This document shows, in pieces, positions 1 to 46,502 of a DNA stretch of 64,000 nucleotides. This DNA is from Eledone cirrhosa (lineage: Eukaryota), in NCBI GenBank assembly GCA_964016885.1, contig CAXHJY010000868.1:55227-119226 (forward strand), read 5' to 3'. Each line of letters starts with the position of its first letter. Position 1 is the first letter of the stretch. A program made the position numbers and the translations under genes. A model generated the notes under the pieces. It was not told the DNA's origin. It searched no databases and worked only from the letters and a program-made list of their open reading frames with translations.

Positions 1-436
1 ATATAATTCAAACTCTTAATGATGAAAAAGTTAAATTTACACTGGCAGAATTTAAAGTAAGAACATGAAAGTCTGTAACTACATACCACAAAGTACATTG
101 TTAAATTCACTACCAATACTGCCAATCCACCACCCTAGGGTCTCTAATAATAATAATAATTTTTATTTTGTAACAAGACCACCTATTTTAGTAAGAATTG
201 TAGTTGATCAATTTCAATACTTCACTAATACTTATTTTATCAACCCTGAAATACTGAAAGATAAAATCAATCTGCACATATTTAAATACAGAATAAAAAT
301 AACATACAACTAAATACTCTACCAATTCTGCTATTCCCCATCATATGATAATAATTATATCAATGATATCTTATTAATATAGCAAATGAGAGTTTTATAG
401 GCGAATAATGAGAATCAAACAAACTGTCTAGTCTAT

Positions 437-622
437 ATAATTGTTTCTACTTTTGGCACAAGGCCAGCAATTATCTCAGTGTATTACTGGTACTTTATTT
501 TATCGACCCCATAAGGATGAAAGGCAAAGTTAACCTCGGCGGGATTTGTATTCAGATCATAAAGGGCCGTAACTCTTTGCTGCAAGGCATGGCGTCTGAC
601 CCTCTACCGATACTGCCGATCC
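437..622 (-). mobile_element. tRNA-derived SINE (duplicated at ~2405-2590; diverged copies at ~1690-1870 and ~3970-4150)
   Basis: A-box TGGCAGTATCGG, B-box-like motif and core ctttcatccttacggggtcgataaaataaagtacc shared by many copies in the window. Confidence 0.8.
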
Positions 623-1048
623 ATAGTATATAATTATAGTCTATATAATGTTGTCTAGTTCTTATTGCTGATTATGGCTGTAAAAGAATTAAACAAAAAC
701 TTCTGGACATGGAAGTGAAACCTAGGATGAAGAGGTCTTAAAGTAAACTTAAGAGAGACCAATATTTTAGTATGTAAAGAAGAAGGCAGGACCTTGCCAT
801 AATTGTGGAAATATCTGTTCTTGATATGTAGAATATAAGAAGGTAAAATAGTATCTATATACCACAGAGGATGTTATCCAATGGTCTACCAACACTACCA
901 CTCCACCCCCTTGGGTCTCCAATAGTAATAATAGTGAAGAACAGATTGTATAATGTTCTATGGTAGCAAGACATGGGCCTTAAGTGACAAAGATTAACCA
1001 TAGCTAGGTAGATATAAATTAATAGAAATATTTTCTCATATTTTTCAG

Positions 1049-1309
1049 TAACATTTCAAATGGAAACTCCATCATCATGTGACATAGAAGAAAGAAGGAT
1101 GTGGTTAAATAAGGAGATTGTAAATCTTCTGAAGACATATCCAAAAGGTATAGAAAAATCTAATTTTTGGAATGTTGTGAACTACAATATAGATGGAGTT
1201 GAATCAAATGACAGTTATGGTGTGACAAATATGAACGAATTGTTTAAATATTATGAAAATCTTGAAGTTGTCTCAGAGAATAATATTTCATATGTGAAAT
1301 TAAAATCAG
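1049..1309 (+). CDS. NOV-like gene, exon A: LOTUS/OST-HTH-like domain repeat 1 (gene begins upstream of the window or at ATG 1060)
   Basis: Acceptor tttttcag|TA, donor TCAG|gtttgt; 261 nt, phase 1-1; peptide EIVNLLKTYPKGI..FW..SYGVTNMNELF..YVKLK fits the LOTUS pattern. Confidence 0.75.
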
Positions 1310-3017
1310 GTTTGTAAATATTTATTATTTTCTATGTTATTTTATAAGAAGAAAAGTTCCAACTATGTGGCTAAAAAAACCCAGCAATGCCATTGATCGT
1401 TAATTTCATTTTTTATAAGAGGAATTTGTAGTTTCCTTGAAACATTTTGTATGGTATATAGAATTTGAAGTTTCAAACCTACATCAATGCGAAATAGATG
1501 GATAAAGAGGTTCCATGCAACCAGATGTTATGTATTTTACCTGAATTTATTTATATGTCCTAATACTTCGAGATTAAAATCTCATCTTCTGAGAAAAATA
1601 AAAGGGACTAATCCAGTGTTTGATGGAACAGGCTATACCTATGTATTAAATATTTCTAATTTTGGTTAAAACAGAAATTTGCAGAAAAGGGTAAAGTTGA
1701 CTATATGATCCTCAATATTTTACTGGTACTTTATTTTATTGACCCCTCAATGATGAAAGACAAAGTTGACCTTGGTGGGATTTGAACTCTGAACATAAAA
1801 TGTTGAAAGTAAATACCACAAAGTATTTATTCCAATGCGCTAATGACACTGCCAATGACCTGCCATGACAATTTCTGTAATAATTGTTTCTATTTTTGGT
1901 ACAAGCTGAGCAATTTAAAGGGAAAAAGAAAGTCAATTAAATTGACTCCATTGCATTACTGGTATTTTATATAATTCAAACTCTTAATGATGAAAAAGTT
2001 AAATTTACACTGGCAGAATTTAAAGTAAGAACATGAAAGTCTGTAACTACATACCACAAAGTACATTGTTAAATTCACTACCAATACTGCCAATCCACCA
2101 CCCTAGGGTCTCTAATAATAATAATAATTTTTATTTTGTAACAAGACCACCTATTTTAGTAAGAATTGTAGTTGATCAATTTCAATACTTCACTAATACT
2201 TATTTTATCAACCCTGAAATACTGAAAGATAAAATCAATCTGCACATATTTAAATACAGAATAAAAATAACATACAACTAAATACTCTACCAATTCTGCT
2301 TTTCCCCATCATATGATAATAATTATATCAATGATATCTTATTAATATAGCAAATGAGAGTTTTATAGGCGAATAATGAGAATCAAACAAACTATCTAGT
2401 CTATATAATTGTTTCTACTTTTGGCACAAGGCCAGCAATTATCCCAGTGTATTACTGGTACTTTATTTTATCGACCCCGTAAGGATGAAAGGCAAAGTTA
2501 ATCTCGGCGGGATTTGAATTCAGATCATAAAGGGCCGTAACACTTTGCTGCAAAGCATGGCGTCTGACCCTCTACCGATACTTCCGAATCCATAGTATAT
2601 AATTATAGTCTATATAATGTTGTCTAGTTCTTATTGCTGATTATGGCTGTAAAAGAATTAAACAAAAACTTCTGGACATGGAAGTGAAACCTAGGATGAA
2701 GAGGTCTTAAAGTAAACTTAAGAGAGACCAATATTTTAGTATGTAAAGAAGAAGGCAGGACCTTGCCATAATTGTGGAAATATCTGTTCTTGATATGTAG
2801 AATATAAGAAGGTAAAATAGTATCTATATACCACAGAGGATGTTATCCAATGGTCTACCAACACTACCACTCCACCCCCTTGGGTCTCCAATAGTAATAA
2901 TAGTGAAGAACAGATTGTATAATGTTCTATGGTAGCAAGACATGGGCCTTAAGTGACAAAGATTAACCATAGCTAGGTAGATATAAATTAATAGAAATAT
3001 TTTCTCATATTTTTCAG

Positions 3018-3278
3018 TAACATTTCAAATGGAAACTCCATCATCATGTGACATAGAAGAAAGAAGGATGTGGTTAAATCAGGAGATTGTAAATCTTTTG
3101 AAGACATATCCAAAAGGTATAGAAAAATCTATTTTTTGGGATGTTGTGAACCATAATATAGATGGAGTTGAACCAAATCACAGATATGGTGTTAAGAATC
3201 TAAAGGAATTGTTTGACATTTATGAAAATCTTGAAATTGTCTCAGAGAATAATTTTTCGTATGTGAAATTAAAACCAG
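3018..3278 (+). CDS. NOV-like gene, exon B: LOTUS-like repeat 2
   Basis: Same acceptor and donor (CCAG|gtttgt); 261 nt, phase 1-1; RYGVKNLKELF motif. Confidence 0.75.
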
Positions 3279-3544
3279 GTTTGTTAACATTTATTACTTT
3301 CCATGTTACTTTTATACGAAGAAAAGTTCCAACTATGTGGCTAAAAAAAACAGCAATGCCATTGATCGTTAATTTCATTTTTTATAAGAGGATTTTGGCC
3401 TACCAACACTGCCACTCCACCACCCTTGGGTCTCCAATAGTAATAATAGTAAAGAACAGATTGTATAATGTTCTATGGTAGCAAGACATGGGCCTTAATT
3501 TAGGTATATATAAATTAATAGAAATATTTTCTCATATTTTTCAG

Positions 3545-3802
3545 TAACATTTCAAATGGAGACTCCAGCATCACTGATAGAAGAGAAGAGAAAGTCATTA
3601 AATCAGCAGATTGTAAAACTCCTGAAGATATATCCAAAAGGTATAAAAAAACGCCTCTTTTGGAATACTGTTATGCAAAAAATAAAAGGAGTTGAATCAA
3701 ATGACAGTTATGGTGTGACAAATATGAACGAATTATTTAAATATTATGAAAATCTTAAAGTTGTCTCAGAGAATAATATTTCATATGTGAAATTAAAATC
3801 AG
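3545..3802 (+). CDS. NOV-like gene, exon C: LOTUS-like repeat 3
   Basis: Same acceptor and donor; 258 nt, phase 1-1. Confidence 0.75.
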
Positions 3803-4534
3803 GTTTGTAAATATTTATTACTTTCCATATGTTACTTTTATACGAAGAAAACTTCCAACTATGTGGCTAAAAAACAACAACAATACCATTGATTGTTAAT
3901 TTCACTTTTCTATATTTTATGTATTAAATATTTGTTATTTTCATAAAAGGACAGAAATATGGGGTAAGGGGTAAAGTTGACTATTTCATCCTCAATATTT
4001 TACTGCTACTTTATGTTATTGACCCCTCATTGACGAAAGACAAAGTTGACCTTGGTGGGATCTTAACTCTGAACATAAAAAGTTGAAAGTAAATACCACA
4101 AAGTATTTATTCCAATGCGCTAATGATACTGCCAATCACCTGCCATGACATTTTATGTAATAATAAAAATGATCTCTTTTGAAAAGGCACAATTGAATTC
4201 ACTACATAGTAGAATAAATGGTGAAGTTGTTGCTGTCAGGATTTGATAAGGAGGGGAAACAGACAACTGTATGACATTAATTAACTCAATTGCTTTTCCA
4301 TTTCTTCTAACTGTGGGCTATAATATTAATAACAATTTCTTACATTGATACTAGATCACCTATCATATGTGAAGTTAAAATCAAGTTTGTAAATATTTGC
4401 TACTTTCTATATGTTACTTTTGTGAGGATAAAAATCCCAACTGTGTGGGTAAGATTTTTGCTTTGCTCAATTTGTGCATTTAGTTGACATATTTTTTTCC
4501 TTTCATTGAACTGTATTTTTATTTTTATTTCCAG

Positions 4535-5883
4535 GTAATAAAACCAGAATGGTAAATAAACCCAGTTTTGAAGATCTTAAAAAGGTCATATGTGAAGTTC
4601 TTGATAAACACAGAAGTAAAATAAAACGTGAACATTTTTGGAATAAAGTGGCTGAGAGGCAAGGACATGTTATCAACCCTAAAGATTATGGTTTCAATAA
4701 TTTATATGAATTACTGAAACAACTTTCTGATGTGCTGATAGAGGTGGCTGAAAAGAATGAACTATATGTAAAAAAGAAAACTTCAAGTGATTCCAATAAA
4801 CCATCTGCTGAGAAAAGCTCATCCTACTTAGGAGACAACATATATAATTTTCCATCACTTAATGAAACTATACAAAGTGACCCATCAAAACCATCTCTAG
4901 TTGAAATTAGACAAAGATTCTGTGACATTGTTGTGAACTCACCCCAGGGTTTATCACTGCAGCTATTGATGGAATTCTATAATAGAAAATATCAAAAGTC
5001 ACCATTTAACTTTCAAGATTATAATGTCAGTAATTCTGAAGAATTTTTTAAGTTGCCTGAATTTCGATGTTTTAATGTTTTAATACAGAACAATACAATA
5101 ATGGTTTATTTAAAAGGACACAATTCTTCCCAAAATATGTTTCCGTTAGTTAATCAAATGCAAGCTCCTAAATGGGGTGAACCAGCATTCCCCCTCAGGC
5201 AACAACCTGTTCCTAATTTACAACATGTTACTGATAGTTTTCATCTTGCTCCTTTTTCCAAACTCCCTCCACCAAAAACAAATGAAAAAGAAATTGTAAT
5301 ACCTCCCTTAAATATTGCTCCTGGGGAGACACTGTCTAAAGAACAGCTTGATAAAATAGCCAAAGAATGTATTGAAATACTTGCTGATAATAAGGAATAT
5401 GTATCTGCTCAAGCTATTGAAAATCTTTTCCTTAAACGTCTTAGAAAGAGAAATATGCGTGAAGTTGGTATCCGTAATTTAGATTATTTGCCTTCAGTTC
5501 ATGAGCATAACCGTATGGCATCTAAAGTAAATGCTTATATTCAAGCCTTTGTGACAGTTCGGTCTGTATGCACACTGAAAGAACTAGAAGAATGTGTTAC
5601 ACTTTATGTGAACGAAAGCAATTCCTTTCAAAGTTTAAAACTGGGTCCTTTTCATAAGATGCAAATTATTTTTGATTTGTTTAAATTTCCTCCTGGTGAA
5701 GAAAGCTACCCAGACCTTACTACAATGGATATTTTAGATAATATAAGAAATTTCCTTAATGAGAATAATTGGTATAAGAAACACGAAATGCCAGAAGTTA
5801 TGTCTTATTTGACAAAAGCTTTTTATTACAATGATCCATTTCAACTTGGGATTCGCTTGAAAAGCCTCCCACTTGCTATTGGG
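4535..5883 (+). CDS. NOV-like gene, exon D: two further LOTUS-like domains plus the NO VEIN N-terminal conserved region
   Basis: ttccag|GT...GGG|gtaagg; INPKDYGFNNLYELL is a classic LOTUS motif; LDKIAKE..EYVSAQAIE..LPSV..SKVNAYIQAFVTVRSVCTLKELE..FQSLKLGP resembles the plant NO VEIN N-terminal region. Confidence 0.92.
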
Positions 5884-5990
5884 GTAAGGATATCTTTGTT
5901 TATTTAAATATTGGAATTGTTTTACCTATTTTTATTCCAGTGTTAATTCTTTCTATTTTAAATACATTTATACAATGTCATCTGTTACAG

Positions 5991-6444
5991 GTCTTAAAAC
6001 GTGCTCAAAAAGATGATTCAGCCCTTACCAGGAAAGTCTTTGATGATATGAAGTTCAAATTAACTGAAGAAATACAAAGCGCTTTCAATAAATTCCGTGG
6101 CTATATTCTTGCAACAAAACAAAATGAAACATATTTGAAGAAGCACTATGCTAAAATGTCAGCTGATGCTGCTCTAAAAGAGATATTTGAACGGCTGTGC
6201 TTGTTGCTTGAAAATTATGAACCTAGAACTATATTTGAACAGAAACAAAAAAGAAAATTTATAGAGATTTCTAATAATTTCTTTCAGCAAATAAGTAGTC
6301 ATGATCTAGCTAAGACTGTGTTTCATGTTGCTATTTGTGTCACTACTACTGAACTACAAGCAATTACCCTGGAATTCTTAAAGCCAAGATCTCAGCCCTC
6401 AACTGATCACTCTAACAAAGTTAAAATTCCTCCTCCTCGAAAAG
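5991..6444 (+). CDS. NOV-like gene, exon E
   Basis: ttacag|GTC...AAAG|gtaaga; open frame, phase 0-1. Confidence 0.9.
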
Positions 6445-7004
6445 GTAAGATTTTGAAATATGATTTTAATAGGGCAACTTCTAAATTTTTAACTATTGTT
6501 ATTGTTAGGTGCCTATAGCCCTGATTCAACTATATACTACTTCTATATATTAACTGTGGACTATTTTCCTACTAAAATTGAGAGGAGAGTTGGCTGTCTA
6601 GATAGAATACTAGACAACTAGGTAAGAGATTGTTTGCATCTTGGCATTGTGTCCACTACAAAAACTCTGATGTATTTCTGCTTGAAATTCTACAAACTCA
6701 CACAATAAAATGAGTTATCTTTTGCCTTGTGTCAAAGAAGCCTTTTAAAACATTTATTGATAAACATCTTGTGGATAAACATGTCCTAATGATTCAATTT
6801 TAACAATTTCTATGCAGTTTTTAGGAGATATAATAAATGCTGTAGAAATAATTTTGTTTGCTTCAGAATGTAATATATAATTTGTTTTATAAAACCTGTT
6901 CTTAAAATGTAACGGAAACAAAAAATAATATTGATGTAGAAAACCAGCAGTATGAAATATGAATGCATACAACAAACAAGAAATTAAATATTAAGGTAAA
7001 AATA

Positions 7005-25710: not shown

Positions 25711-27731
25711 CTAGCAGAAAAACTGCCCTTCGGGCGGTTTTCTGCTGGGATTTGTAGTGTGCATATTGGTGTTGTATATGTAAATTGACAATATCTTCTT
25801 CTTCACCCACTTATTTCTGAGAGGGGAGTGGGGGCAGAGTCCTTCTTAAACACTCAGTAGCAAACATCTATAACTGATGCAGCTGGATCCCAAAGCATGA
25901 CCAGCCAAGCTCATGGATGTTATCCAACTATCTTGCTCAGGGTATACCTCTGGGTCTCTTGACGGTTGGTTTTTGGAACCGTCTGGGTTGTCCTGAATTG
26001 ATGGGAAAAGACTTGACGGTCTTACTCTGTGCTTCTGGTGAAGAGGCAGGTGCCTTACCTGGGACATCACAGTTAGTGACTCTTTTGCTTCTTCCCACAT
26101 TCTGGATGCAGCGGTAAGGGCGAGAGCTACAGCAGCCGCAGCTAAACGGAACAAAATCCTAAAATACCGTGTTCTTTCAGCTAACTACTTTATCCAGCCC
26201 GTGGCGTTCGAGACGTTGGGGGAGTCGGGCTACTGACAGCGAGGTTCTTATCTTCACTGGCAGCTTGCCAAACAGAGGTAACTGGTGATGCTCGTGAGGG
26301 CACTTGGTTGTTCCAGCACCTTAGCCTCGCCATCACCCCAGGTAACACTGCAAGCGTGCTGGCTTGCCTAAAAAATTATTAGAGAGGTTTCCCAGTGCTT
26401 CTCGCTATATTACTATCTTTTGCTCTGGTAGCGGCTCATTTTTCCATTCTTTCACCTGCTTATTGTTCTGTGGCCTAAGATGTGAGTATTTTTTCTCTTT
26501 CTTTTTTTCCATTCCCTTTACTTTGTATATATTATATTTGTTAGTGTTTTCGTTCTATAACCATTATATTAAATGAGTTTTAAAAAAAAAAGTGTTAATA
26601 AATAAATAGAGTTAATAAATAAATAAAACATTATACTTGTTTTACCCTCCCATTTCCAATTTCACCAAACGCTATCATTACAGTATGTGTGTGTTTGTGT
26701 AAATGTATTTGTGTGAATGTATGTATGTTTGTGTGAAAGTATGTGTGAATGTATGTGTATTTGTGTGAATTATGTCTGTGAGAATATTTTTATAAGTTTG
26801 TGTTTGCGCGATTATAGTTATATACTCATACATATAGATGTATGTATGTGCACACTCATACGCGTCACCATGTAGAAAATCATAATGTCTCTATCTCTCT
26901 CATCACACACTCTCTCTTTCTATATATATGGTAGTTGAAGTGGTGGTGGCAGTGACGATATACCGGAAGTGCAACTTTGAAAAGAAGTCAATTTTAAATT
27001 ATTTGGATGTAAATATAATGTATTTTGCAATACACTTTATGCTTAATTAAAAGCATTTTGAAGACCGTAAGCTATTGTTTTAAAGTAGTGACAAATTCAC
27101 TCACTTCGATCTCAGCAAACAGGAGGAGATAAGCCGACATGACATGTTTCGCTTTTGATGCTTTTAATTAAGCATAAAGTGTATTGCAAAATACATTATA
27201 TTTACATCCATATATATATTGCTATTTCAGAGCTACAATTCTAATTTTTAATTTCTGCCTGACCAACAACCGCTCTGCATAATCAGCTCCTGATTATTTA
27301 CTAGATTTCTATAAGAATATAACATCATTAATCTCAGCAGACGGGCGGGGTAGTTGGCCTTGATAAGCTTCAACAAAAGCGAAACATGTCATGTCGGCTT
27401 ATCTCCTCCTGTTTGCTGAGATCGAAGTGAGTGAATTTGTCACTACTTTAAAACAATAGCTTACGGTCTTCAAAATGCTTTTAATTAAGCATAAAGTGTA
27501 TTGCAAAATACATTATATTTACATCCATATATATATTGCTATTTCAGAGCTACAATTCTAATTTTTAAATTATTTATTTTTATGAAATTATTTATGTTTA
27601 CGAAATTTAGTACATAAATTATGTAATATTCATTCATTATTTATTCAAAGTAATCCAATTTATTTTACTAACTGGATTAAAAGAAATAAACTGTATGCAG
27701 TCCCGCAGACCTTGCTTTATTATAGTTTAGA
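25711..27731 (-). mobile_element. Probable non-autonomous Helitron with nested retroelement fragments
   Basis: On -: A|TC 5' end at 27731; GCCCGAAGGGC hairpin ~11 nt before CTAG|T 3' end. Confidence 0.55.
25985..26600 (+). mobile_element. CRE-like retrotransposon 3' end (restriction-like endonuclease region, A-rich tail)
   Basis: DGKRLDGLT..W..GRCLTWDITVSD..K..KY..PVAFETLG. Confidence 0.7.
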
Positions 27732-30013
27732 TAGAGGATTGAGCGTTAAAGAGATATTTATTTATATCCTGGAAGTCAGAAGCATGTTGCTGCAAGTAAG
27801 AAGAAACAAACGCAGTGACTAAGGTATTTTTCTTATTATCGTTTGTAAAAACAAGATCCTTGGAAGATTTCAACTGGTAGTTATAAAAAGATATAAGTAA
27901 TATTTTAACTTCTCATCCTTCTTATAATGGATATTTTTCCACTTGAATTTGATTTGCAACAGAAAAGATGATATATTATATGACCTAGAGTTGGAAAGTT
28001 GAAATTTCCTAACAAATTCTTGGAATATTCAAAATATTGAAGCAAAATTACTGTAGGGAAATCACCAGGGTGGCCTTCTGTATAAAAAGTTATAGTCAGA
28101 GTGGATGGCAACATATTTAGGCACTACCATGCTATTAGCTGTCAGAAGTGAAAGTATTCTCAATCGTAAACATCGTTTATTTCCGTATTACCACGCATTA
28201 TTTTAATAAAGCATATCAATGTGTGGAGTTACTTAAATGAAAATATAGGTGGCCCTTAAAGAGGCCAAATTAGAAAACAAATTTAAGTTAATTAGAAAAC
28301 AAGTCATGGTTATCAAATAAATTTGATTTAATCATTTATATTTTCATAGTCATGGTTATCAATGTAGAAAACAAGTCATTTTCCCAACAGTGGAGTTACT
28401 TCTGACAGCTAATACCATGAACTTAAATGAAATTTCACCAATAGTGGAGTTACTTCTGACAGCTAATACTATGAACTTAAATGAATTTTCACCAATAGTG
28501 GAGTTACTTATGACAGCTAATACCATGAACTTAAATGAAATTTCACCAATAGTGGAGTTACTTCTGACAGCTAATACCATGAACTTAAATGAAATTTCAC
28601 CAATAGTGGAGTTACTTCTGACAGCTAATACCATGAACTTAAATGAAATTTCACCAATAGTGGAGTTACTTCTGACAGCTAATACCATGAACTTAAATGA
28701 ATTTTCACCAATAGTGGAGTTACTTCTGACAGCTAATACCATGAACTTAAATGAAATTTCACCAATAGTGGAGTTACTTCTGACAGCTAATACCATGAAC
28801 TTAAATGAAATTTCACCAATAGTGGAGTTACTTCTGACAGCTAATACCATGAACTTAAATGAAATTTCACCAATAGTGGAGTTACTTCTGACAGCTAATA
28901 CCATGAACTTAAATGAAATTTCACCAATAGTGGAGTTACTTCTGACAGCTAATACCATGAACTTAAATGAAATTTCACCAATAGTGGAGTTACTTCTGAC
29001 AGCTAATACCATGAACTTAAATGAAATTTCACCAATAGTGGAGTTACTTCTGACAGCTAATACCATGAACTTAAATGAAATTTCACCAATAGTGGAGTTA
29101 CTTCTGACAGCTAATACCATGAACTTAAATGAAATTTCACCAATAGTGGAGTTACTTCTGACAGCTAATACCATGAACTTAAATGAATTTTCCCAATAGT
29201 GGAGTTACTTCTGACAGCTAATACCATGAACTTAAATGAAATTTCACCAACAGTGGAGTTACTTCTGACAGCTAATACCATGAACTATATTTTCATAGTC
29301 ATGGTTATTAATGTAGAAAACAAGTCATTTTCACCGACAGTGGAGTTACTTCTGACAGCTAATACCATGAACTTAAATGAATTTTCACCAATAGTGGAGT
29401 TACTTCTGACAGCTAATACCATGAACTTAAATGAAATTTCACCAATAGTGGAGTTACTTCTGACAGCTAATACCATGAACTTAAATGAAATTTCACCAAT
29501 AGTGGAGTTACTTCTGACAGCTAATACCATGAACTTAAATGAAATTTCACCAATAGTGGAGTTACTTCTGACAGCTAATACCATGAACTTAAATGAATTT
29601 TCCCAATAGTGGAGTTACTTCTGACAGCTAATACCATGAACTTAAATGAAATTTCACCAACAGTGGAGTTACTTCTGACAGCTAATACCATGAACTATAT
29701 TTTCATAGTCATGGTTATTAATGTAGAAAACAAGTCATTTTCACCGACAGTGGAGTTACTTCTGACAGCTAATACCATGAACTTAAATGAATTTTCACCA
29801 ATAGTGGAGTTACTTCTGACAGCTAATACCATGAACTTAAATGAAATTTCACCAATAGTGGAGTTACTTCTGACAGCTAATACCATGAACTTAAATGAAT
29901 TTTCACCAATAGTGGAGTTACTTCTGACAGCTAATACCATGAACTTAAATGAAATTTCACCAATAGTGGAGTTACTTCTGACAGCTAATACCATGAACTA
30001 TATTTTCATAGTC

Positions 30014-33000
30014 ATCATCATCATCATCATCATCAGGTTTAGCGTCCGTGTTCCACGCTTGCATGGGTTTGGACGGGGGTTTTCCCACTTGAGGCAAGAG
30101 TGGTTGTCTTGCTCGCATAGGACTGTCTGGCGGGTTTTCTACAGTTGGATGCCCTTCCTAACATTTACAGTGTGGGGCTGGGAGGTTTTTACCGTGTTGC
30201 CTACACGGCCACATTACAGCGTGGACTGTCTGGCGGGTTTTCTACAGCTGGATGCCCTTCCTAACACCAACCACATTTACAGTGTGGGGCTGGGAGGTTT
30301 TTACCGTGTTGCCTACACGGCCACATTTACAGCGTGGACTGTGTGTTTTTTTGTCGTGACACCTACACGATCTCATTTGTTTCGGCCTGGATGTTGTGGG
30401 ACCAACATAACTGTACATTGAAAGGGGCGGTGTGGAGGTGGTGGGACGGGGGGGGGTGTTTTGATAGAGATGCCTACTGACTGTAGTAGGTTTTTACTTT
30501 GTATTTAGGTAAGGCGGGTCTTCTCTATTACTGAGTACCGCCAAAGGTCTCGGTCCAGTGACATTGTCTTGGAGAGGTGTAAGCGTGTGAGGTCGGAATT
30601 TATCAGCTCGTCCCATGTTTTTCTGGGTCTGCCTACTCCGTGGCTACCGTCTATCTTTATTGCCCTGCACTTTGTTATACAGCTGTCGTCTTTCATGCGC
30701 ATCACGTGACCGTACCAACGTAGCCTTCTCTCGAGTAAACAACATCTGATCCCTCTTATTTCTAATTTTTTCCTTAGTTCGTTTATGCTTTGCCGTTCAC
30801 GTATATTACTATTGCACATCCAGCGGAGCATGCAAGCTTCGTTCCTCTCTAGTCTGCGTATATCCTCTGCACACAATGCCCAGGTCTCACTGCCATGCAG
30901 CATTGCTGTTCGTATGCAGGCATCGTATAACCTGCCTTTCATTTTTAGGGAGAACCCTCTAGCGGCTAATAGTGGTATAAGCTCTCTGAACTTTTTCCAT
31001 CCAGTTCTGACTCTAGCTACTGTACTTTCAGAGCACCCTCCCCCACTGCTGATTTTGTCACCCAGGTAACGGAAGCTGTCCACTATTTCTATAGAACCCT
31101 CTGCGCAGTTGAAGGAGCTAGTATTTTGTGGGCACTTGCTGCTACTTATTGCACCAGAGCACCGGCCACATGTAAAATCTATGTTCTTAGTTAGCTTACC
31201 TGTGATCCCACTACATCTTTTATGCACCCATACTTTGCATTTGGGACATAAAATGGAGTTTCTACCTACGCCTTTCCTACACACTGAGCATGGCCATTTC
31301 CCAGATGGGACTGCCGCCATATTTTCTTTCCTACAAACTAGAACTTTTGTCTTAGCCAGGTTAATTTTAAGGCCTTTTGATTCTAGGCCGTGCTTCCATG
31401 TTTGGAATTTCTTCTCTAGTTCGGTCATTGATTCAGCTATGAGCGTTAGATCATCTGCGTATAGGAGTTCCCATGGGCAGCCGGTCTTGAACTCCTCTGT
31501 TATAGCCTGAAGGGCAATAATAAATAGTAGGGGGCTAAGAACAGAGCCCTGATGGACACCAACTTTTACGCTAAACTCTTCACTATATTCGTTGTTAATT
31601 CTAACCTTACTGACTGTTTCTTTATACATGGCTTGTATAGCTCTCACAAGCCATTCGTCAACACCTAGTTTTCTAAGAGACCACCAGATAATGGAACGGG
31701 GGACTCTGTCGAAGGCTTTCTCCAAGTCGACGAAAGCTAAGTATAGGGGTTTACTTTTAGCTAGGTACTTCTCCTGTAGTTGTCGTACAATGAAAAGAGC
31801 GTCTGTTGTACTTTTGCCTGACACAAACCCGAACTGCATTTCATTTAGATCAATTCTCTCTCTGATTAGTTGCGCTATTACTTTTTCCGTGACCTTCATG
31901 ACCTGGTCGATTAATTTAATGCCTCTATAGTTACTCCTATCTAGGGCATCTCCTTTTCCCTTATAGCAGTTAACGATGATGCTGCTACGCCAGTCCTTCG
32001 GAACAACCCCATTCTGTACGACTTGGTTAACTATCCGGGTGACCATGGTGTGTCCCACCGAACCAGATGCCTTCAGCATCTCAGCAACTATTTCCGAAGG
32101 ACCAGCCGCCTTACCCGTCTTCATATCTTTGATTGCCTTGCTTATTGTACTACCCTGGATTAACACTGCTGGTCCCTCTATTGGGTCGATGTGGGGGAGA
32201 CTGTCTTTCTCCCATTTGTTCTCCTCATTTAGAAGCCTTTCGTAGTGACACTTCCAAGCTACCTTCTTATCAGTGTCGGTGATGGCAAGTATGCCATCAT
32301 CGTTAAGCACACACTTCTCCCCGACAATATCACGGTTTTCCTTGACACATTGCCTGGCAATCCTGAACACCTCACGTTTTTGGTCCTCACGTTGTAGAAC
32401 ATGCTTGAACTTTCTTTCCTCTGCTTCCCTTCTTGCGAAGTACACTTGTCTCCTAGCTTCCCTCCTGGCTACCTGATAGTCTTCTCTACTTCCCCCATCC
32501 CGCCATGCTTTCCAAGCCTGCTTTTTGGCCTTAATTGACTCCTCCACCTTACTGTTCCACCACCATGTTACTCTCCTCCTACCTACAGGCCTGCTCCAGC
32601 CACAGACTTCGTCTGCCGCCGTCAGCAGGTTTGCTCTCAGGAATTCCCACTGTTCCTCTATATTATACGACTCTAATTGCTCTTCCTTACTGTCGAAAGC
32701 GTCAAGTAATATGCTTTGAAATTTATTTCTGGCTATGGGGTCCTTTAGCTTCCATATTTTTCTCCTGAGGATAGTCCTCTTCCGCTGTCTAGTACGTCTC
32801 GTCCTGACTATGAGGTCGCTAATTATCAGTCTATGTTGGGAGGTGAATTCTTCATGGGGGAGGGATTTAGTGTTAACAACAGACACTCTGTCACGTCTTC
32901 TGGTAAGGATATAATCTACCTGGCTTGTGTGTTCCCCCGATCTATAGGTGATCAAGTGATTGTCTCGTTTTTTGAAGTTAGTGTTACAGATAGTTAAGTT

Positions 33001-33810
33001 ATTTGCGTCGCAGAATTCCAGGATTCTGGAGCCTTCCTCATTTCTAGTACCGAACCCATAGCCTCCATGGATTCCGTCATAGCCATCACAATGCTGTCCA
33101 ACGTGACCATTTAGGTCGCCTGCAATAACTATATAGTCACTGTCGGTTATTTGGGAGGTAGCGAGCATCAGTGTCTCATAGAAACTGTCTTTTATAGCAC
33201 CGGGCAGTCCGGATTGTGGTGCGTACGCAGATATTACTGTCACCGTAGTTTTATTGAGGACAAGTCTTATTTTAAGGACAAGTTTTATTCTGTCGTTCAC
33301 TCTATTTACGTCTATTATCTTATCTGCCCACTTTTCTGCTACCATGATTCCTACCCCACCCAACCCATTGTCATTTCCCACCCAGAAAAGCTTATAGCAT
33401 CGTTCTTTACCCACGATGAATCTAGCCGACCCTCCCCTCCACCTGGTCTCTTGAATACAACAAACATCGACCTCCTTACGTTCAAGCATTTCTACAACCT
33501 CGTTAGAGCGACCCTTTAAGGTGCCTACATTCATGGTACCAACTCTGAAGTTTTGGATTGCGTTTGGAGGGTGGGAGGGGTGGGACGCGGGGGGGGGGAT
33601 GGGGTTATGTTAGCCATCCTGGGCCGAATCAAGGCGGAGTGCTTGCATTCTCGTCCACGAGGTGAATTTGTCTTTATCTTTGGCATTGTCGCTGAGCGTC
33701 CACATTTTTCTCTCTTCAACTCTCCAGAATTCCGTAGTCCATCCATCATATCGAAAAGCAACCAGTTAGGCGATAGTATGGGCCTCTGACTTATGATTGG
33801 TCCACGTAAT
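30014..33810 (-). mobile_element. Apparently intact RTE-clade LINE
   Basis: ~3.8 kb; single long ORF; 3'UTR ending in a (GAT)n tail; inserted within a minisatellite unit. Confidence 0.93.
30505..33534 (-). CDS. LINE ORF: APE endonuclease, reverse transcriptase and PHD-type zinc finger (1009 aa)
   Basis: MNVGTL, QET, SAYAP, GDLNGH, VDYIL, SQHR (APE); FVDLEKAFD, GVHQGSVLSP, YADD (RT); C4HC3 finger. Confidence 0.95.
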   Translation of the reverse strand: MNVGTLKGRSNEVVEMLERKEVDVCCIQETRWRGGSARFIVGKERCYKLFWVGNDNGLGGVGIMVAEKWADKIIDVNRVNDRIKLVLKIRLVLNKTTVTVISAYAPQSGLPGAIKDSFYETLMLATSQITDSDYIVIAGDLNGHVGQHCDGYDGIHGGYGFGTRNEEGSRILEFCDANNLTICNTNFKKRDNHLITYRSGEHTSQVDYILTRRRDRVSVVNTKSLPHEEFTSQHRLIISDLIVRTRRTRQRKRTILRRKIWKLKDPIARNKFQSILLDAFDSKEEQLESYNIEEQWEFLRANLLTAADEVCGWSRPVGRRRVTWWWNSKVEESIKAKKQAWKAWRDGGSREDYQVARREARRQVYFARREAEERKFKHVLQREDQKREVFRIARQCVKENRDIVGEKCVLNDDGILAITDTDKKVAWKCHYERLLNEENKWEKDSLPHIDPIEGPAVLIQGSTISKAIKDMKTGKAAGPSEIVAEMLKASGSVGHTMVTRIVNQVVQNGVVPKDWRSSIIVNCYKGKGDALDRSNYRGIKLIDQVMKVTEKVIAQLIRERIDLNEMQFGFVSGKSTTDALFIVRQLQEKYLAKSKPLYLAFVDLEKAFDRVPRSIIWWSLRKLGVDEWLVRAIQAMYKETVSKVRINNEYSEEFSVKVGVHQGSVLSPLLFIIALQAITEEFKTGCPWELLYADDLTLIAESMTELEKKFQTWKHGLESKGLKINLAKTKVLVCRKENMAAVPSGKWPCSVCRKGVGRNSILCPKCKVWVHKRCSGITGKLTKNIDFTCGRCSGAISSSKCPQNTSSFNCAEGSIEIVDSFRYLGDKISSGGGCSESTVARVRTGWKKFRELIPLLAARGFSLKMKGRLYDACIRTAMLHGSETWALCAEDIRRLERNEACMLRWMCNSNIRERQSINELRKKLEIRGIRCCLLERRLRWYGHVMRMKDDSCITKCRAIKIDGSHGVGRPRKTWDELINSDLTRLHLSKTMSLDRDLWRYSVIEKTRLT

Positions 33811-36800
33811 AATGGTTATTAATGTAGAAAACAAGTCATTTTCACTGACAGTGGAGTTACAGTACTTCTGACAGCTAATACCATGAACTTAAATGAATTT
33901 TCACCAATAGTGGAGTTACTTCTGACAGCTAATACCATGAACTATATTTTCATAGTCATGGTTATTAATGGAGAAAACAAGTCATTTTCACTGACAGTGG
34001 AGTTACAGTACTTCTGACAGCTAATACCATGAACTTAAATGAATTTTCACCAATAGTGGAGTTACATCTGACAGCTAATACCATGAACTTAAATGAATTT
34101 TCACCAATAGTGGAGTTACTTCTGACAGCTAATACCATGAACTTAAATGAAATTTCACCAATAGTGGAGTTACTTCTGACAGCTAATACCATGAACTTAA
34201 ATGAATTTTCACCAATAGTGGAGTTACTTCTGACAGCTAATACCATGAACTTAAATGAAATTTCACCAATAGTGGACTTACTTCTGACAGCTAATACCAT
34301 GAACTTAAATGAAATTTCACCAATAGTGGAGTTACTTCTGACAGCTAATACCATGAACTTAAATGAAATTTCACCAATAGTGGAGTTACTTCTGACAGCT
34401 AATACCATGAACTTAAATGAAATTTCACCAATAGTGGAGTTACTTCTGACAGCTAATACCATGAACTTAAATGAAATCTCACCAATAGTGGAGTTACTTC
34501 TGACAGCTAATACCATGAACTTAAATGAAATTTCACCAACAGTGGAGTTACTTCTGACAGCTAATACCATGAACTATATTTTCATAGTCATGGTTATTAA
34601 TGTAGAAAACAAGTCATTTCACCAACAGGGGAGTTACTTCTGACAGCTAATACCATGAACTGTATTTTCATAGTCATGGTTATTAATGTAGAAAACAAGT
34701 CATTTCACCAACAGTGGAGTTACTTCTGACAGCTAATACCATGAACTATATTTTCATAATCATGGTTATCAATGTAGAAAACAAGTCATTTTCACCAACA
34801 GTGGAGTTACTTCTGACAGCTAATACCATGAACTTAAATGAAATTTCACCAATAGTGGACTTACTTCTGACAGCTAATACCATGAACTTAAATGAAATTT
34901 CACCAATAGTGGAGTTACTTCTGACAGCTAATACCATGAACTTAAATGAAATTTCACCAATAGTGGAGTTACTTCTGACAGCTAATACCATGAACTTAAA
35001 TGAAATTTCACCAATAGTGGAGTTACTTCTGACAGCTAATACCATGAACTTAAATGAATTTTCACCAATAGTGGAGTTACTTATGACAGCTAATACCATG
35101 AACTTAAATGAAATTTCACCAATAGTGGAGTTACTTCTGACAGCTAATACCATGAACTTAAATGAAATTTCACCAACAGTGGAGTTACTTCTGACAGCTA
35201 ATACCATGAACTATATTTTCATAATCATGGTTATCAATGTAGAAAACAAGTCATTTTCACCAACAGTGGAGTTACTTCTGACAGCTAATACCATGAACTG
35301 TATTTTCATAATCATGGTTATCAATGTAGAAAACAAGTCATTTTCACCAACAGTGGAGTTACTTCTGACAGCTAATACCATGAACTATATTTTCATAATC
35401 ATGGTTATCAATGTAGAAAACAAGTCATTTTCACCAACAGTGGAGTTACTTCTGACAGCTAATACCATGAACTTAAATGAATTTTCACCAATAGTGGAGT
35501 TACTTCTGACAGCTAATACCATGAACTTAAATGAAATTTCACCAACAGTGGAGTTACTTCTGACAGCTAATACCATGAACTTAAATGAATTTTCACCAAC
35601 AGTGGAGTTACTTCTGACAGCTAATACCATGAACTTAAATGAATTTTCACCAACAGTGGAGTTACTTCTGACAGCTAATACCATGAACTTAAATGAATTT
35701 TCACCAACAGTGGAGTTACTTCTGACAGCTAATACCATGAACTTAAATGAAATTTCACCAATAGTGGAGTTACTTCTGACAGCTAATACCATGAACTTAA
35801 ATGAAATTTCACCAACAGTGGAGTTACTTCTGACAGCTAATACCATGAACTTAAATGAATTTTCACCAACAGTGGAGTTACTTCTGACAGCTAATACCAT
35901 GAACTTAAATGAATTTTCACCAACAGTGGAGTTACTTCTGACAGCTAATACCATGAACTTAAATGAATTTTCACCAACAGTGGAGTTACTTCTGACAGCT
36001 AATACCATGAACTTAAATGAATTTTCACCAACAGTGGAGTTACTTCTGACAGCTAATACCATGAACTTAAATGAATTTTCACCAACAGTGGAGTTACTTC
36101 TGACAGCTAATACCATGAACTTAAATGAATTTTCACCAACAGTGGAGTTACTTCTGACAGCTAATACCATGAACTTAAATGAATTTTCACCAACAGTGGA
36201 GTTACTTCTGACAGCTAATACCATGAACTTAAATGAAATTTCACCAATAGTGGAGTTACTTCTGACAGCTAATACCATGAACTTAAATGAAATTTCACCA
36301 ACAGTGGAGTTACTTCTGACAGCTAATACCATGAACTATATTTTCATAATCATGGTTATCAATGTAGAAAACAAGTCATTTTCACCAACAGTGGAGTTAC
36401 TTCTGACAGCTAATACCATGAACTGTATTTTCATAATCATGGTTATCAATGTAGAAAACAAGTCATTTTCACCAACAGTGGAGTTACTTCTGACAGCTAA
36501 TACCATGAACTATATTTTCATAATCATGGTTATCAATGTAGAAAACAAGTCATTTTCACCAACAGTGGAGTTACTTCTGACAGCTAATACCATGAACTTA
36601 AATGAAATTTCACCAATAGTGGAGTTACTTCTGACAGCTAATACCATGAACTTAAATGAAATTTCACCAACAGTGGAGTTACTTCTGACAGCTAATACCA
36701 TGAACTATATTTTCATAATCATGGTTATCAATGTAGAAAACAAGTCATTTTCACCAACAGTGGAGTTACTTCTGACAGCTAATACCATGAACTTAAATGA

Positions 36801-38261
36801 AATTTCACCAACAGTGGAGTTACTTCTGACAGCTAATACCATGAACTTAAATGAAATTTCACCAACAGTGGACTTACTTCTGACAGCTAATACCATGAAC
36901 TTAAATGAAATTTCACCAATAGTGGAGTTACTTCTGACAGCTAATACCATGAACTTAAATGAAATTTCACCAATAGTGGAGTTACTTCTGACAGCTAATA
37001 CCATGAACTTAAATGAAATTTCACCAATAGTGGAGTTACTTCTGACAGCTAATACCATGAACTTAAATGAAATCTCACCAATAGTGGAGTTACTTCTGAC
37101 AGCTAATACCATGAACTTAAATGAAATTTCACCAACAGTGGAGTTACTTCTGACAGCTAATACCATGAACTATATTTTCATAGTCATGGTTATTAATGTA
37201 GAAAACAAGTCATTTCACCAACAGTGGAGTTACTTCTGACAGCTAATACCATGAACTATATTTTCATAATCATGGTTATCAATGTAGAAAACAAGTCATT
37301 TTCACCAACAGTGGAGTTACTTCTGACAGCTAATACCATGAACTTAAATGAAATTTCACCAACAGTGGAGTTACTTCTGACAGCTAATACCATGAACTTA
37401 AATGAATTTTCACCAATAGTGGAGTTACTTCTGACAGCTAATACCATGAACTTAAATGAAATTTCACCAACAGTGGAGTTACTTCTGACAGCTAATACCA
37501 TGAACTATATTTTCATAGTCATGGTTATCAATGTAGAAAACAAGTCATTTCACCAACAGGGGAGTTAACTTAAATGAAAATATAGGTGGCCCTTAAAAGG
37601 GCCAAATTAGAAAACAAATATATGGTTATCAAACTTTTTTCACCAACCCTGAACATTTATGAAGAAATGTTTAGAAAACAAATTTTGTTCACCAACCTTA
37701 TTCAAAAGCATGGATACAGTCCACATGGAGACAAGAGACAGTCCCCATGGTATTAGCTGTCAGAAGTAATTCCATTGTTGGGAAAATGACTTGTTTTCTA
37801 CATTGATAACCATGACTATGAAAATATAAATGATTAAATCAAATTTATTTAATAACCATGACTTGTTTTCTAATTAACTTAAATTTGTTTTCTACATTTT
37901 CTAATTAACTTAAATTTGTTTTCTATTTGACAGCTAATAGCATGGTAGTGCCCATATTTAATATATATTTTTACTAGTACTTGCCAGGTCTTAGATGACT
38001 GATATAAAATATTTAATATTTATGGTAAGCGTGGCAATATTAGGGTTAGGCGTTTCCAGGGCTGCTTTTGGCATCGAAAAGATAAACAAGAAAGACTAGA
38101 GCGCTAATATATTTCAAAGTTGTCTCCCAGTTCCTAGTGGGTCTTAATTTCTATAGTAACTTCCCAGGAAATAATCCTTTATTATAGAAATTGTTTATGA
38201 TATGAAGACACCTTGTTTAAAAATGAAACTTCTAAACAATAAATATTTTTACCATTCTGGA

Positions 38262-41502: not shown

Positions 41503-41976
41503 ATGTTATTGTAATTGATGAAGAAAATGAAGAAAGTGATACAGAAGATGCTAATAATACACAGTATGAGATTTTACCTGAAGAGAAAAAGGAAGAAGAA
41601 ATCTGCCCACAGAGGGCTTTGATTGAAACGATCCGTCGTGAAGAATTTGGTCTTGGCATTAAACTCAATGCTGATGGCCAGAAGTTGATTGATCGACAAC
41701 AAGAACGTCTAGGTCGTAGTTTAGATAGATTATCTAAAGACTTGTATAGTAAAGATTCTCATTTTGTGTTGGAATTAATTCAAAATGCTGATGACAACAC
41801 CTACCCAGAGAAGTTTTCTTCTAAAGATTCAACAGACTGCCCCTCAGTGAAGTTCTGTATAAATAGTAGTTCAGTGACTATTCTAAACAATGAGGTTGGT
41901 TTTAAGGAAAAAAATATTCGAGCCATCTGTGATGTTGGCAAGAGTACCAAAGAAAAACGTAAATTTGGTTATATTG
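41503..41976 (+). CDS. NOV-like gene, exon N: start of the sacsin-like GHKL ATPase
   Basis: IETIRREEFGLG..LSKDLYSKDSHFVLELIQNADDN (GHKL motif I, ExxxN), NNEVGF (motif II), AICDVGKSTK; phase 1-1. Confidence 0.95.
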
Positions 41977-42040
41977 GTGAGTTTGATATTTCATATCTTA
42001 ATCTAAAGTAATTAGTGCTGCAAAAAGCAGTGTTGTTTAA

Positions 42041-42256
42041 CCCTTTAACATTACTCTATAAATACTATTGTATTTTGGGGGGTAAAGGCTTTATCTTACA
42101 TAATTATCTCACATAATATCGAATCTATGATATTTTGATGTTATTTATTTTGAGAACAATACCTTGACATCAGTATGAACAGTAAGTTACGAGCAACTTG
42201 AATAGACAGAGGTGAGAGAATTCTGGCCGGATATTGCCGGTTTAAATGATCAAGAG
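42041..42256. mobile_element. piggyBac-like MITE
   Basis: TTAA flanks, CCCTTTA start; homologous to the 61793-61991 copy. Confidence 0.65.
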
Positions 42257-42467
42257 TTAAATATAAAATTGTTCAGGAAATATATCTAAATATCAGCCAT
42301 ATACTAAACAATGGTTATTTTACAAACCTATTTAGTTTAGAATGTATGTATGTACAGAGACATACCTGTATATATACTTGTGTATATAAACATACCCGTA
42401 TATATACTTGTGTATATACATTTGAAGAAGCCATTTCTACTTCAACAAACTTTCTACCAACATTAAA

Positions 42468-45364
42468 TAGAAGACCACATGTATATTGTCTTAAATCCTA
42501 AATAAGATAGAAGACCACATGTATATTGTATTAAATCCTAAATAAGAGAGAATGCCACATGTATATTGTATTAAATCCTAAATAAGATAGACCACATGTA
42601 TATTGTATTAAATCCTAAATAAGATAGACCACATGTATATTGTATTAAATCCTAAATAAGAGAGAAGACCACATGTATATTGTATTAAATCCTAAATAAG
42701 ATAGACCACATGTATATTGTATTAAATCCTAAATAAGATAGAAGACCACATGTATATTGTATTAAATCCTAAATAAGATAGACCACATGTATATTGTATT
42801 AAATCCTAAATAAGATAGAAGACCACATGTATATTGTATTAAATCCTAAATAAGAGAGAAGAGCACATGTATATTGTATTAAATCCTAAATAAGATAGAA
42901 GACCACATGTATATTGTATTAAATCCTAAATAAGATAGACCACATGTATATTGTATTAAATCCTAAATAAGATAGAAGACCACATGTATATTGTATTAAA
43001 TCCTAAATAAGAGAGAAGAGCACATGTATATTGTATTAAATCCTAAATAAGATAGAAGACCACATGTATATTGTATTAAATCCTAAATAAGATAGACCAC
43101 ATGTATATTGTATTAAATCCTAAATAAGATAGAAGACCACATGTATATTGTATTAAATCCTAAATAAGAGAGAAGAGCACATGTATATTGTATTAAATCC
43201 TAAATAAGAGAGAAGAGCACATGTATATTGTATTAAATCCTAAATAAGATAGAAGACCACATGTATATTGTATTAAATCCTAAATAAGATAGAAGACCAC
43301 ATGTATATTGTATTAAATCCTAAATAAGATAGACCACATGTATATTGTATTAAATCCTAAATAAGATAGAAGACCACATGTATATTGTATTAAATCCTAA
43401 ATAAGATAGACCACATGTATATTGTATTAAATCCTAAATAAGATAGAAGACCACATGTATATTGTATTAAATCCTAAATAAGAAAGTAGAGCACATGCAT
43501 ATTGTATTATATCCTAAATAAGATAGAAGACCACATGTATATTGTATTAAATCCTAAATAAGAGAGAAGAGCACATGTATATTGTATTAAATCCTAAATA
43601 AGATAGACCACATGTATATTGTATTAAATCGTAAATAAGATAGAAGACCACATGTATATTGTATTAAATCCTAAATAAGATAGACCACATGTATATTGTA
43701 TTAAATCCTAAATAAGATAGAAGACCACATGTATATTGTATTAAATCCTAAATAAGATAGAAGACCACATGTATATTGTATTAAATCCTAAATAAGATAG
43801 AAGACCACGTATATTGTATTAAATCCTAAATAAGAGAGAAGAGCACATGTATATTGTATTAAATCCTAAATAAGATAGAAGACCACATGTATATTGTATT
43901 AAATCCTAAATAAGATAGAAGACCACATGTAAATTGTATTAAATCCTAAATAAGATAGACCACATGTATATTGTATTAAATCCTAAATAAGATAGAAGAC
44001 CACATGTATATTGTATTAAATCCTAAATAAGAAAGTAGAGCACATGCATATTGTATTATATCCTAAATAAGATAGAAGACCACATGTATATTGTATTAAA
44101 TCCTAAATAAGAGAGAAGAGCACATGTATATTGTATTAAATCCTAAATAAGATAGACCACATGTATATTGTATTAAATCCTAAATAAGATAGAAGACCAC
44201 ATGTATATTGTATTAAATCCTAAATAAGATAGACCACATGTATATTGTATTAAATCCTAAATAAGAGAGAAGAGCACATGTATATTGTATTAAATCCTAA
44301 ATAAGATAGACCACATGTATATTGTATTAAATCGTAAATAAGATAGAAGACCACATGTATATTGTATTAAATCCTAAATAAGATAGACCACATGTATATT
44401 GTATTAAATCCTAAATAAGATAGAAGACCACATGTATATTGTATTAAATCCTAAATAAGATAGAAGACCACATGTATATTGTATTAAATCCTAAATAAGA
44501 TAGACCACATGTATATTGTATTAAATCCTAAATAAGATAGAAGACTACATGTATATTGTATTAAATCCTAAATAAGATAGAAGACCACATGTATATTGTA
44601 TTAAATCCTAAATAAGATAGAAGACCACATGTATATTGTATTAAATCCTAAATAAGATAGACCACATGTATATTGTATTAAATCCTAAATAAGAGAGAAG
44701 ACCACATGTATATTGTATTAAATCCTAAATAAGATAGAAGACCACATGTATATTGTATTAAATCCTAAATAAGATAGACCACATGTATATTGTATTAAAT
44801 CCTAAATAAGATAGAAGACCACATGTATATTGTATTAAATCCTAAATAAGATAGACCACATGTATATTGTATTAAATCCTAAATAAGAGAGAAGACCACA
44901 TGTATATTGTATTAAATTCTAAATAAGATAGACCACATGTATATTGTATTAAATCCTAAATAAGATAGAAAACCACATGTATATTGTATTAAATCCTAAA
45001 TAAGATAGACCACATACATATTGTATTAAATCCTAAATAAGATAGAAGACCACATGTATATTGTATTAAATCCTAAATAAGATAGAAGACCACATGTATA
45101 TTGTATTAAATCCTAAATAAGATAGACCACATGTATATTGTATTAAATCCTAAATAAGATAGAAGACCACATGTATATTGTATTAAATCCTAAATAAGAT
45201 AGAAGACCACATGTATGTTGTCTTAAATCCTAAATAAGAGAGAAGAGCACATGTATATTGTATTAAATCCTAAATAAGAGAGAAGACCACATGTATATTG
45301 TCTTAAACCCTAAATAAGAGAGAATACCACATGTATATTGTATTAAATCCTAAATAAGATAGAA
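42468..45364. repeat. 40/37-bp minisatellite, ~2.9 kb
   Basis: Unit taagatagaagaccacatgtatattgtattaaatcctaaa and a variant 3 bp shorter. Confidence 0.97.
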
Positions 45365-45399
45365 TATGGCTCAGTAAAGCCAGTATGGAAACACTGCTT

Positions 45400-46348: not shown

Positions 46349-46502
46349 GTCAAAAAGGAATTGGTTTCAAGTCTGTGTTCAGGATAACAGATTGTCCTGA
46401 GATTCATTCCAACAAGTACCACATTTACTTTGATGTAAACAGTGGTCCAACTGGCTATATCCTCCCACATTGGAGTGATAATTGCTTTGATCCAGAAGAT
46501 AG
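46349..46502 (+). CDS. NOV-like gene, exon O: GHKL glycine motif
   Basis: tttag|GT; GQKGIGFKSVFRITDCPEIHSN; donor GATAG|gtttgt; phase 1-2. Confidence 0.95.

Follow-up and report, generated by a model that had tools for sequence, protein, structure and literature searches.

Anti-phage activity has been demonstrated for bacterial Tiamat, and LOTUS fusions are described for 316 of 918 eukaryotic Tiamats, only from aquatic organisms and with molluscs included, in the accessible text of a recent preprint (10.64898/2026.09.30.754977). In the same text no N-terminal LOTUS extension is reported for prokaryotes, the zebrafish protein wu:fj29h11 has four LOTUS domains, and LOTUS-Tiamats are predicted to localise to processing bodies (P-bodies), their function being given as unknown. 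Plant NOV has been linked to virus response in the available part of a second preprint (10.64898/2026.09.30.755639). As far as both texts go, these two 2026 preprints leave the antiviral role of eukaryotic Tiamats and the function of their LOTUS domains unsettled. Human MARF1 has eight LOTUS domains, and tandem arrays have been proposed to raise RNA binding; minimal LOTUS is stated to bind RNA and not Vasa, whereas the extended type has a C-terminal helix (PMC7498356, accessible sections). The DNA analysed here is a stretch of 64,000 nucleotides (nt) from Eledone cirrhosa (GenBank assembly GCA_964016885.1, contig CAXHJY010000868.1, positions 55,227 to 119,226, forward strand), called the window below, which opens with tandem copies of an exon for a LOTUS-like domain ahead of a Tiamat/NO VEIN gene.

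The amplification of this minimal-LOTUS start exon in an animal Tiamat is real and recent, and it is probably ongoing. The reading that we prefer, with a probability of about 0.55, is that the start exon was copied in tandem and that the copies are spliced head to tail, lengthening a LOTUS array that binds RNA or RNA granules. Tandem exon duplication is in itself ordinary. LOTUS-Tiamat fusions have already been described, and the exon-level amplification in an octopod is the new aspect. No published report of ongoing exon-level LOTUS amplification was found in the literature searched, which took in few subscription journals. The words octopus, cephalopod and exon have 0 occurrences in the main text of the Tiamat preprint (10.64898/2026.09.30.754977), whose supplementary tables may list octopod proteins.

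A tandem array of symmetric LOTUS exons

The array consists of the following parts.

1 to 1968, + strand: repeat unit A, 1968 nt; the window start falls inside the array
1049 to 1309, + strand: exon A, 261 nt, phase 1-1, with an 11-nt leader, ATG and LOTUS-like domain; mosaic
1969 to 3397, + strand: unit B, truncated; at about 3396 it runs into the sequence that precedes the acceptor in module C
3018 to 3278, + strand: exon B, 261 nt, phase 1-1, 83% amino-acid identity to A
3396 to 4164, + strand: module C, with 3396-3914 (86% like 882-1417) and 3918-4164 (90% like 1640-1884)
3545 to 3802, + strand: exon C, 258 nt, phase 1-1, one codon less, 79% amino-acid identity to A
4363 to 4452, + strand: decayed remnant of a further copy, with exon 3' end and donor flank, 78-84% identical to the three donor regions

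The three exons have in common a 30-nt acceptor context, a G/GTTTGT donor (exon/intron) and an ATG located 11 nt 3' of the acceptor. A preliminary description of this DNA had given their lengths as 261, 261 and 258 nt, all phase 1-1 with the same splice sites, and the coordinates, acceptor context and donor bear this out. It had also held that any subset could be joined in frame, and all eight exon joins tested, including those to the main exon at 4535, are free of stops. The residues across exon-to-exon joins are KLKS-VTFQ-METP. Symmetric phase is also found in 6 of 17 downstream internal exons of the host gene, and the symmetry of A, B and C is a single inherited event rather than three.

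Positions 1-1428 and 1969-3397 are 97.1% identical at an offset of 1968 (self-BLAST, E=0.0), and the duplication of the LOTUS exon is far above chance expectation. The near-identical introns of a unit of about 1.97 kb, described earlier, hold for this range, but the full 1968-nt unit is present for A only: unit B ends at 3397, and exon C lies 527 nt after exon B within a module of about 520 nt that is 86% like that of A. The 247-nt piece 3' of exon C is 90% like 1640-1884. Taken together, this layout would imply at least three rounds of duplication.

The host gene and its single-copy orthologues

4535 to 5883, + strand: main exon with phase-1 acceptor; it encodes two more LOTUS domains as well as the conserved N-terminal region of NOV; Pfam OST-HTH 1.8e-6
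5991 to 59208, + strand: 18 further Tiamat/NO VEIN exons with GT-AG introns; 59208 is an alignment end, not a donor, and the gene continues beyond the match
41503 to 46502, + strand: two GHKL/sacsin-type ATPase exons with the ELIQNADD motif; PADLOC TmtA 1.1e-28 and 2.1e-12

The host gene of the cassette exons is an intact octopod Tiamat/NO VEIN homologue within the window. A gene model built with the Octopus vulgaris protein as guide has 19 exons downstream of the cassettes, GT-AG in 18 of 18 introns, and 1587 amino acids with 0 stops; 1275 of 1579 aligned residues (81%) are identical to O. vulgaris. The best relatives are the NO VEIN proteins of Argonauta hians, O. vulgaris and O. sinensis. 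The main exon is 74% identical to O. vulgaris residues 85-533, and its residues from about 250 to 449, the NOV N-terminal region, match mollusc and fish NOV proteins (82% to O. vulgaris); when the main exon was searched against longer proteins, 1 weak match came out of 3333 candidates. The ATPase exons, at 41.5 and 46.3 kb, match the TmtA profiles with the catalytic Glu motif ELIQNADD intact, while the Pfam SACS matches on them are fragments under the cut-off. NOV_C and SACS are present in the orthologues, and within the window the O. vulgaris residues beyond 1660 have no credible counterpart. It is noted that the main exon has an in-frame ATG at 4549-4551, 14 nt after its phase-1 acceptor, the O. 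vulgaris Met being two residues earlier. In a second species, the acceptor region of this exon has C4532T and G4535C among many changes, with the AG kept.

One copy of the cassette domain and three LOTUS domains in all are present in the full-length octopod proteins, namely 2 isoforms of O. vulgaris, 2 of the 3 isoforms of O. sinensis (the remaining one begins further down) and the Argonauta protein. These counts rest on annotated proteins, in which annotation may overlook extra exons. In these single-copy orthologues (CAI9734952.1, XP_036366467.1 and GAB1610178.1, respectively) the domain stands at the start Met. For O. bimaculoides the entries are fragmentary and do not include the cassette-domain region. 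A fourth LOTUS domain in the octopod proteins was not counted, as the iterated hidden Markov model (HMM) had drifted into the NOV N-terminal motif. With one copy in three other octopods, the domain number is lineage-specific, in agreement with the variable domain number proposed earlier.

Three of the octopod proteins start at the Met equivalent to the ATG of each cassette. Two longer isoforms have L/V-PLE ahead of this Met, aligning with the V-TFQ of the cassette joins, which suggests from the alignment that the phase-1 acceptor 11 nt upstream of the ATG is ancestral. The preliminary description had taken the ATG of each exon as a sign of alternative starts. It is no evidence for them: as the orthologous start Met shows, the codon is an ancestral one that was copied along with the exon.

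LOTUS identity of the cassette domain

By fold and homology, the cassette domain is predicted to be of the minimal LOTUS type. The LOTUS label given to the exons earlier holds on these two grounds, with Pfam giving no match. Exon A is 33% identical over 69 amino acids to a LOTUS domain of the main exon (E 4e-7), and the paralogous domain of the main exon passes Pfam PF12872 with 28.1 bits against a cut-off of 23.8. The predicted structure of exon A, with a confidence (pLDDT) of 87 from an alignment of only 5 rows, shows a modelled winged helix-turn-helix core of three helices and a terminal beta-hairpin. The extra C-terminal helix of extended LOTUS is absent, exon and model both ending at the second hairpin strand. 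In a Foldseek search with this model, LOTUS domains (Oskar, TDRD5) occupy 9 of the top 10 rows, TDRD5 with a template-modelling (TM) score of 0.76. Comparison by hhalign of an alignment that takes in both main-exon LOTUS domains (A2) with a Pfam-positive shark NOV LOTUS yields a probability of 89.9 and an E of 1.7e-6. A search with exon A among proteins of 47-151 amino acids gave no match, and an HMM search of PDB sequences did not find LOTUS, returning 5 chance-level rows. The net charge is -4 for A, -4 for B and +7 for C, compared to +3 in O. vulgaris and +1 in Argonauta.

Copy number from contig depth

Contig depth was compared in two runs (X1 and X2) of one sample, possibly the one that was assembled, a run of another sample (X4) and a second species (X5). 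The evidence consists of 8 pieces listed per run, of about 398,000; contigs drop variants, and the records are filtered. The contigs of unit A at 112-460, 619-1614, 1585-1738 and 1935-2105 have 0 differences and a depth of 88-113, whereas the 1805-nt main-exon contig has a depth of 19.1 and 22.8 in X1 and X2. The ratio of unit A to main exon is 3.9-5.2 in all seven unit-A contigs listed from X1 and X2, which is the outcome, by way of contigs, of the read-depth check that had been recommended for the array. The pieces encircle the whole unit save for repeat-rich gaps, the contig at 1935-2105 crossing the start of the next unit, and this fits a tandem array.

We estimate that about 4-5 A units together with B and C make six or seven exon copies and eight or nine LOTUS domains. 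The earlier expectation of more copies than the window shows is thereby upheld as to number; the extra A units would lie either upstream of the window or collapsed in the assembly. In X1/X2 the exon bin of B has a cover of 3-4 and that of C one of 7-12, compared to 20-30 for the main exon; in X4, cover is absent from 4915-5616 and stays below 1 in the exon bins of B and C. These are filtered contigs, and no inference is made from holes.

Divergent variants also occur among the contigs. One (X1 record 4) differs from C by 39 differences and 9 gaps at a depth of 7.8, and another (X4 record 20) has 23 differences from A at a depth of 6.5. Their presence in two samples hints at alternative copy use or copy-number polymorphism. 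For the X5 species, the divergence on the main exon, over 4482-6614, amounts to about 9%. Two different genomic contigs of X5 lie over the exon 3' end and donor, with depths of 45.5 and 18.2 (single copy about 25), and a further contig covers the remnant region, which hints that the duplication is older than the split from this species.

Recombination between copies and selection

Exon A is a mosaic of B and C, being B-like up to 1194 and C-like from 1204. A single switch accounts for 47 of the 51 informative sites, a fit reached in 0 of 100000 shuffles; recombination between copies, as suspected earlier, is therefore borne out. The exons are divergent where the adjacent intron is homogenised. 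Between A and B there are 0/425 differences just upstream of the exon and 22/261 inside it, and between A and C 5/146 in the upstream intron compared to 34/143 in the 5' half of the exon (p=2e-7). The homogenised introns beside old exon variants may reflect selection, or else a small number of conversion tracts that fell there by chance.

Such a pattern would also be compatible with a diversifying sensor, in which the array would serve an antiviral or anti-transposon Tiamat as a selected, variable module for recognition and be amplified in an accordion-like manner. The identity of the host gene as a Tiamat homologue, the charge gap of 11 between A/B and C and the further variants among the contigs (X1 record 4, X4 record 20) speak for it. 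Positive selection between copies was looked for by the ratio of non-synonymous to synonymous substitution (dN/dS) and was not found: the ratio is 0.73, 0.54 and 0.53, below 1 in 3/3 pairs and in 6/6 half-exon comparisons. Considering that synonymous divergence of the exon copies is equal to or higher than non-synonymous divergence, the exon differences are old and not accelerated, and the copies look mildly constrained as coding sequence. For the cassette domain, relative-rate tests fall short of significance (p 0.07-0.16), and a faster rate in the E. cirrhosa lineage is seen in the remainder of the protein as well (101 vs 72, p 0.03). The newest copies are near-identical, and no immune role of an animal Tiamat is demonstrated in the accessible text of the two preprints cited above. 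Consequently, we regard the sensor as doubtful. Of the link to immune or conflict genes proposed in the preliminary description, the part that stands is the Tiamat/NO VEIN homology of the host gene; diversifying selection is not supported at a dN/dS of 0.53-0.73. Variable recognition is likewise not supported, the recent gain being mostly of near-identical copies that add to valency and not to specificities. It is a tentative and rather unlikely extension that the start exon varies in number between individuals, is reshuffled among them by half-exon conversion and tunes the RNA trigger of an ancestral antiviral ATPase-nuclease. If this were true, such an accordion-like sensor would provide natural alleles for testing whether animal Tiamats remain immune proteins.

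A probable A-to-A splice joint

X4 behaves like RNA, as judged from its small size (88 million letters), the absence of depth from intron bin 703-936 (0, against 101 in X1) and a contig with its end exactly at donor 6444, 25 letters extending beyond. A search of sequencing runs listed no RNA run that contains this DNA, which carries no weight as to expression. Its record 19 is a contig of 291 nt (261+30) aligned at 1077-1305 with 0 differences, a 62-letter tail and a depth of 82. A cyclic contig of period 261 would have 261+30 nt given a word length of 31; the index words have 31 letters, and the assembly behind the X4 contigs presumably uses 31-letter words as well. Since exon A and its upstream intron both end in TCAG, the tail is expected at 1045-1106, which is 62 letters. 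Placed there, it predicts bin depths of 45.90 and 51.09, and 45.9 and 51 are observed; an extra length of 32 alone fits among the 140 lengths tried. Placing the tail on B, on C or on the main exon was also considered and rejected, as this would give a depth of 10-22 where 0.55-5.4 is seen. From these table values it is deduced that exon A is very likely joined to exon A.

A cyclic contig is compatible with a circle as well as with linear tandem exons. The array could thus be real and largely non-productive, with the A-A contig being a back-spliced circle or short transcript and the mRNA using one or few copies. The depth of 82 for this contig, compared to a summed depth with a mean of 5.4 in the start bin of the main exon in X4, is in line with this, contig depth being a poor measure of expression. 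Against it, the approximately 4-5 genomic copies explain the cycle without back-splicing, and frame and splice sites are kept in all three copies. Within 1-4600 there is no exon-flanking inverted pair beyond chance (11 short rows, the best a 42-nt self-palindrome). Circular RNAs are reported to be low in O. vulgaris in the accessible part of one study (PMC9699675). We consider a non-productive array unlikely. An assembly effect, in which B and C belong to the other haplotype or are mis-polished copies and were set in tandem beside the A array, would agree with the lack of confirmation of B and C by long exact contigs among the 8 pieces per run and with a half-depth divergent contig overlapping C, but is very unlikely, given that unit A by itself is multi-copy by depth, that C is 24% off A in the 5' half with no stop or frameshift and with deletions of its own, and that the X5 species also has two different contigs over the exon 3' end.

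Repeats and other elements in the window

437 to 623, + strand: copy of a high-copy dispersed repeat in unit A (families D16/D19, self-BLAST, summed depth >10^6)

This repeat, which we take to be SINE-like (short interspersed nuclear element), has further direct, decayed copies at about 1640-1875 and 1876-2126. Its copies at 437-623 and 2405-2592 have 8/187 differences, compared to 2/861 in the flanking intron; the excess stems either from conversion by other repeat copies or from polishing error. Further downstream, 54-nt satellite arrays at 28380-29999 and 34009-37567 are 97-98% alike and contain long open frames in either orientation, 850 codons in one case. These arrays and the inverted-strand long interspersed nuclear element (LINE) that they flank lie within a 15-kb intron of the Tiamat/NO VEIN gene. 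This putative endonuclease/reverse-transcriptase LINE, identified by eye and apparently young, has a 1034-codon open frame at 30508-33609 on the minus strand. A 37/40-nt minisatellite of about 74 copies (42467-45364) occupies the intron between the two ATPase exons. A 161-nt inverted repeat at 27000-27531, 99% complementary with its arms 210 nt apart, is possibly a miniature inverted-repeat transposable element (MITE) or an RNA-editing substrate. A 48-nt tandem array of 10.5 copies (60756-61260) and a 408-nt TTC microsatellite at the window end (63593-64000) were also seen.

Proposed mechanism

We propose that the stop-free 11-nt leader gives the start exon phase 1 at both ends. In each duplicate, the leader would become the VTFQ linker, and one domain would be added without a frameshift. 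Unequal crossover and gene conversion would keep altering the copy number and shuffling exon halves, possibly with the direct SINE-like repeats that surround the exon as seeds. Head-to-tail splicing of the copies is likely, and the protein would then have about eight or nine predicted RNA-binding LOTUS domains, compared to three in the relatives. The likely effect is a higher valency, as avidity for RNA or RNA granules, at the N-terminus of an ATPase-nuclease.

Several points weigh against the head-to-tail lengthening of a functional LOTUS array. It is possible that the expansion is noise which a genome rich in repeats tolerates. Purifying selection is weak, with Fisher p of 0.42, 0.17 and 0.08 and no whole-exon dN/dS significantly off 1, and 55 random substitutions would escape a stop 8% of the time. 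The protein tree splits A, B and C from the other octopods only at 91/93, unstarred. Pfam PF12872 finds 0 of 3 cassette exons above its curated cut-off, and the best Foldseek E is 0.017, with none under 0.001. The acidic A and B, with orthologues at +3 and +1, are contrary to the expectation for an RNA binder, LOTUS domains being associated with G-rich/G4 RNA. The copy estimate from contig depth is rough, from about 4 (summed bins) to about 7 (lowest single-copy contig). It should also be mentioned that the kind of run behind X4 is not on record, and that the A-A joint is arithmetic on tables with no joint row, in which a linear tandem is not separable from a circle. The B-C, C-main and leader-exon joints were not seen in contig tables that are swamped by the dispersed repeat. 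Finally, the nuclease half of the gene falls beyond the window.

Comparison with known systems

The locus shows a route by which LOTUS number changes, namely a start exon of chance symmetry that is copied whole, and the one-copy relatives beside about six or seven copies here form a comparison set for RNA binding, granule targeting and selection. Like other LOTUS-Tiamat/NO VEIN proteins, the protein has N-terminal LOTUS domains, the NOV N-terminal region and a GHKL/sacsin-type ATPase. Unlike those, it has a single exon amplified, with copies 79-83% identical and about 4-5 near-identical units. In a scan of 176 sequences, 93 have a match; the maximum is 4 matches per protein and the most similar within-protein pair is at 63%, many of the 176 being fragments unable to show an exon array.

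The octopod NO VEIN orthologues are the same gene with the same first domain and start Met (81% over 1579 residues to O. vulgaris). They have this domain once; in E. cirrhosa its number is no lower than three and likely six or seven. Bacterial Tiamat (TmtA) is related through the ATPase exons, which match its profiles, and the octopod orthologues end in NOV_C. TmtA has no LOTUS extension in the accessible account, and anti-phage activity is known for the bacterial system. MARF1, TDRD5 and TDRD7 also have LOTUS domains in tandem, and TDRD5 and TDRD7 are close fold matches to exon A, but their effectors differ (NYN nuclease, Tudor). The C-terminal helix of the extended, Vasa-binding LOTUS is predicted to be without a counterpart in exon A.

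Diversified exon arrays of the Dscam or DMBT1 kind are marked by positive selection between copies, alternative use or copy-number polymorphism. In the SRCR exons of DMBT1, tandem exon repeats change the domain number of an innate-defence gene, as they do here. DMBT1, in the accounts available, is a secreted receptor with demonstrated polymorphism and selection, which distinguishes it from the present state of evidence for the E. cirrhosa array.

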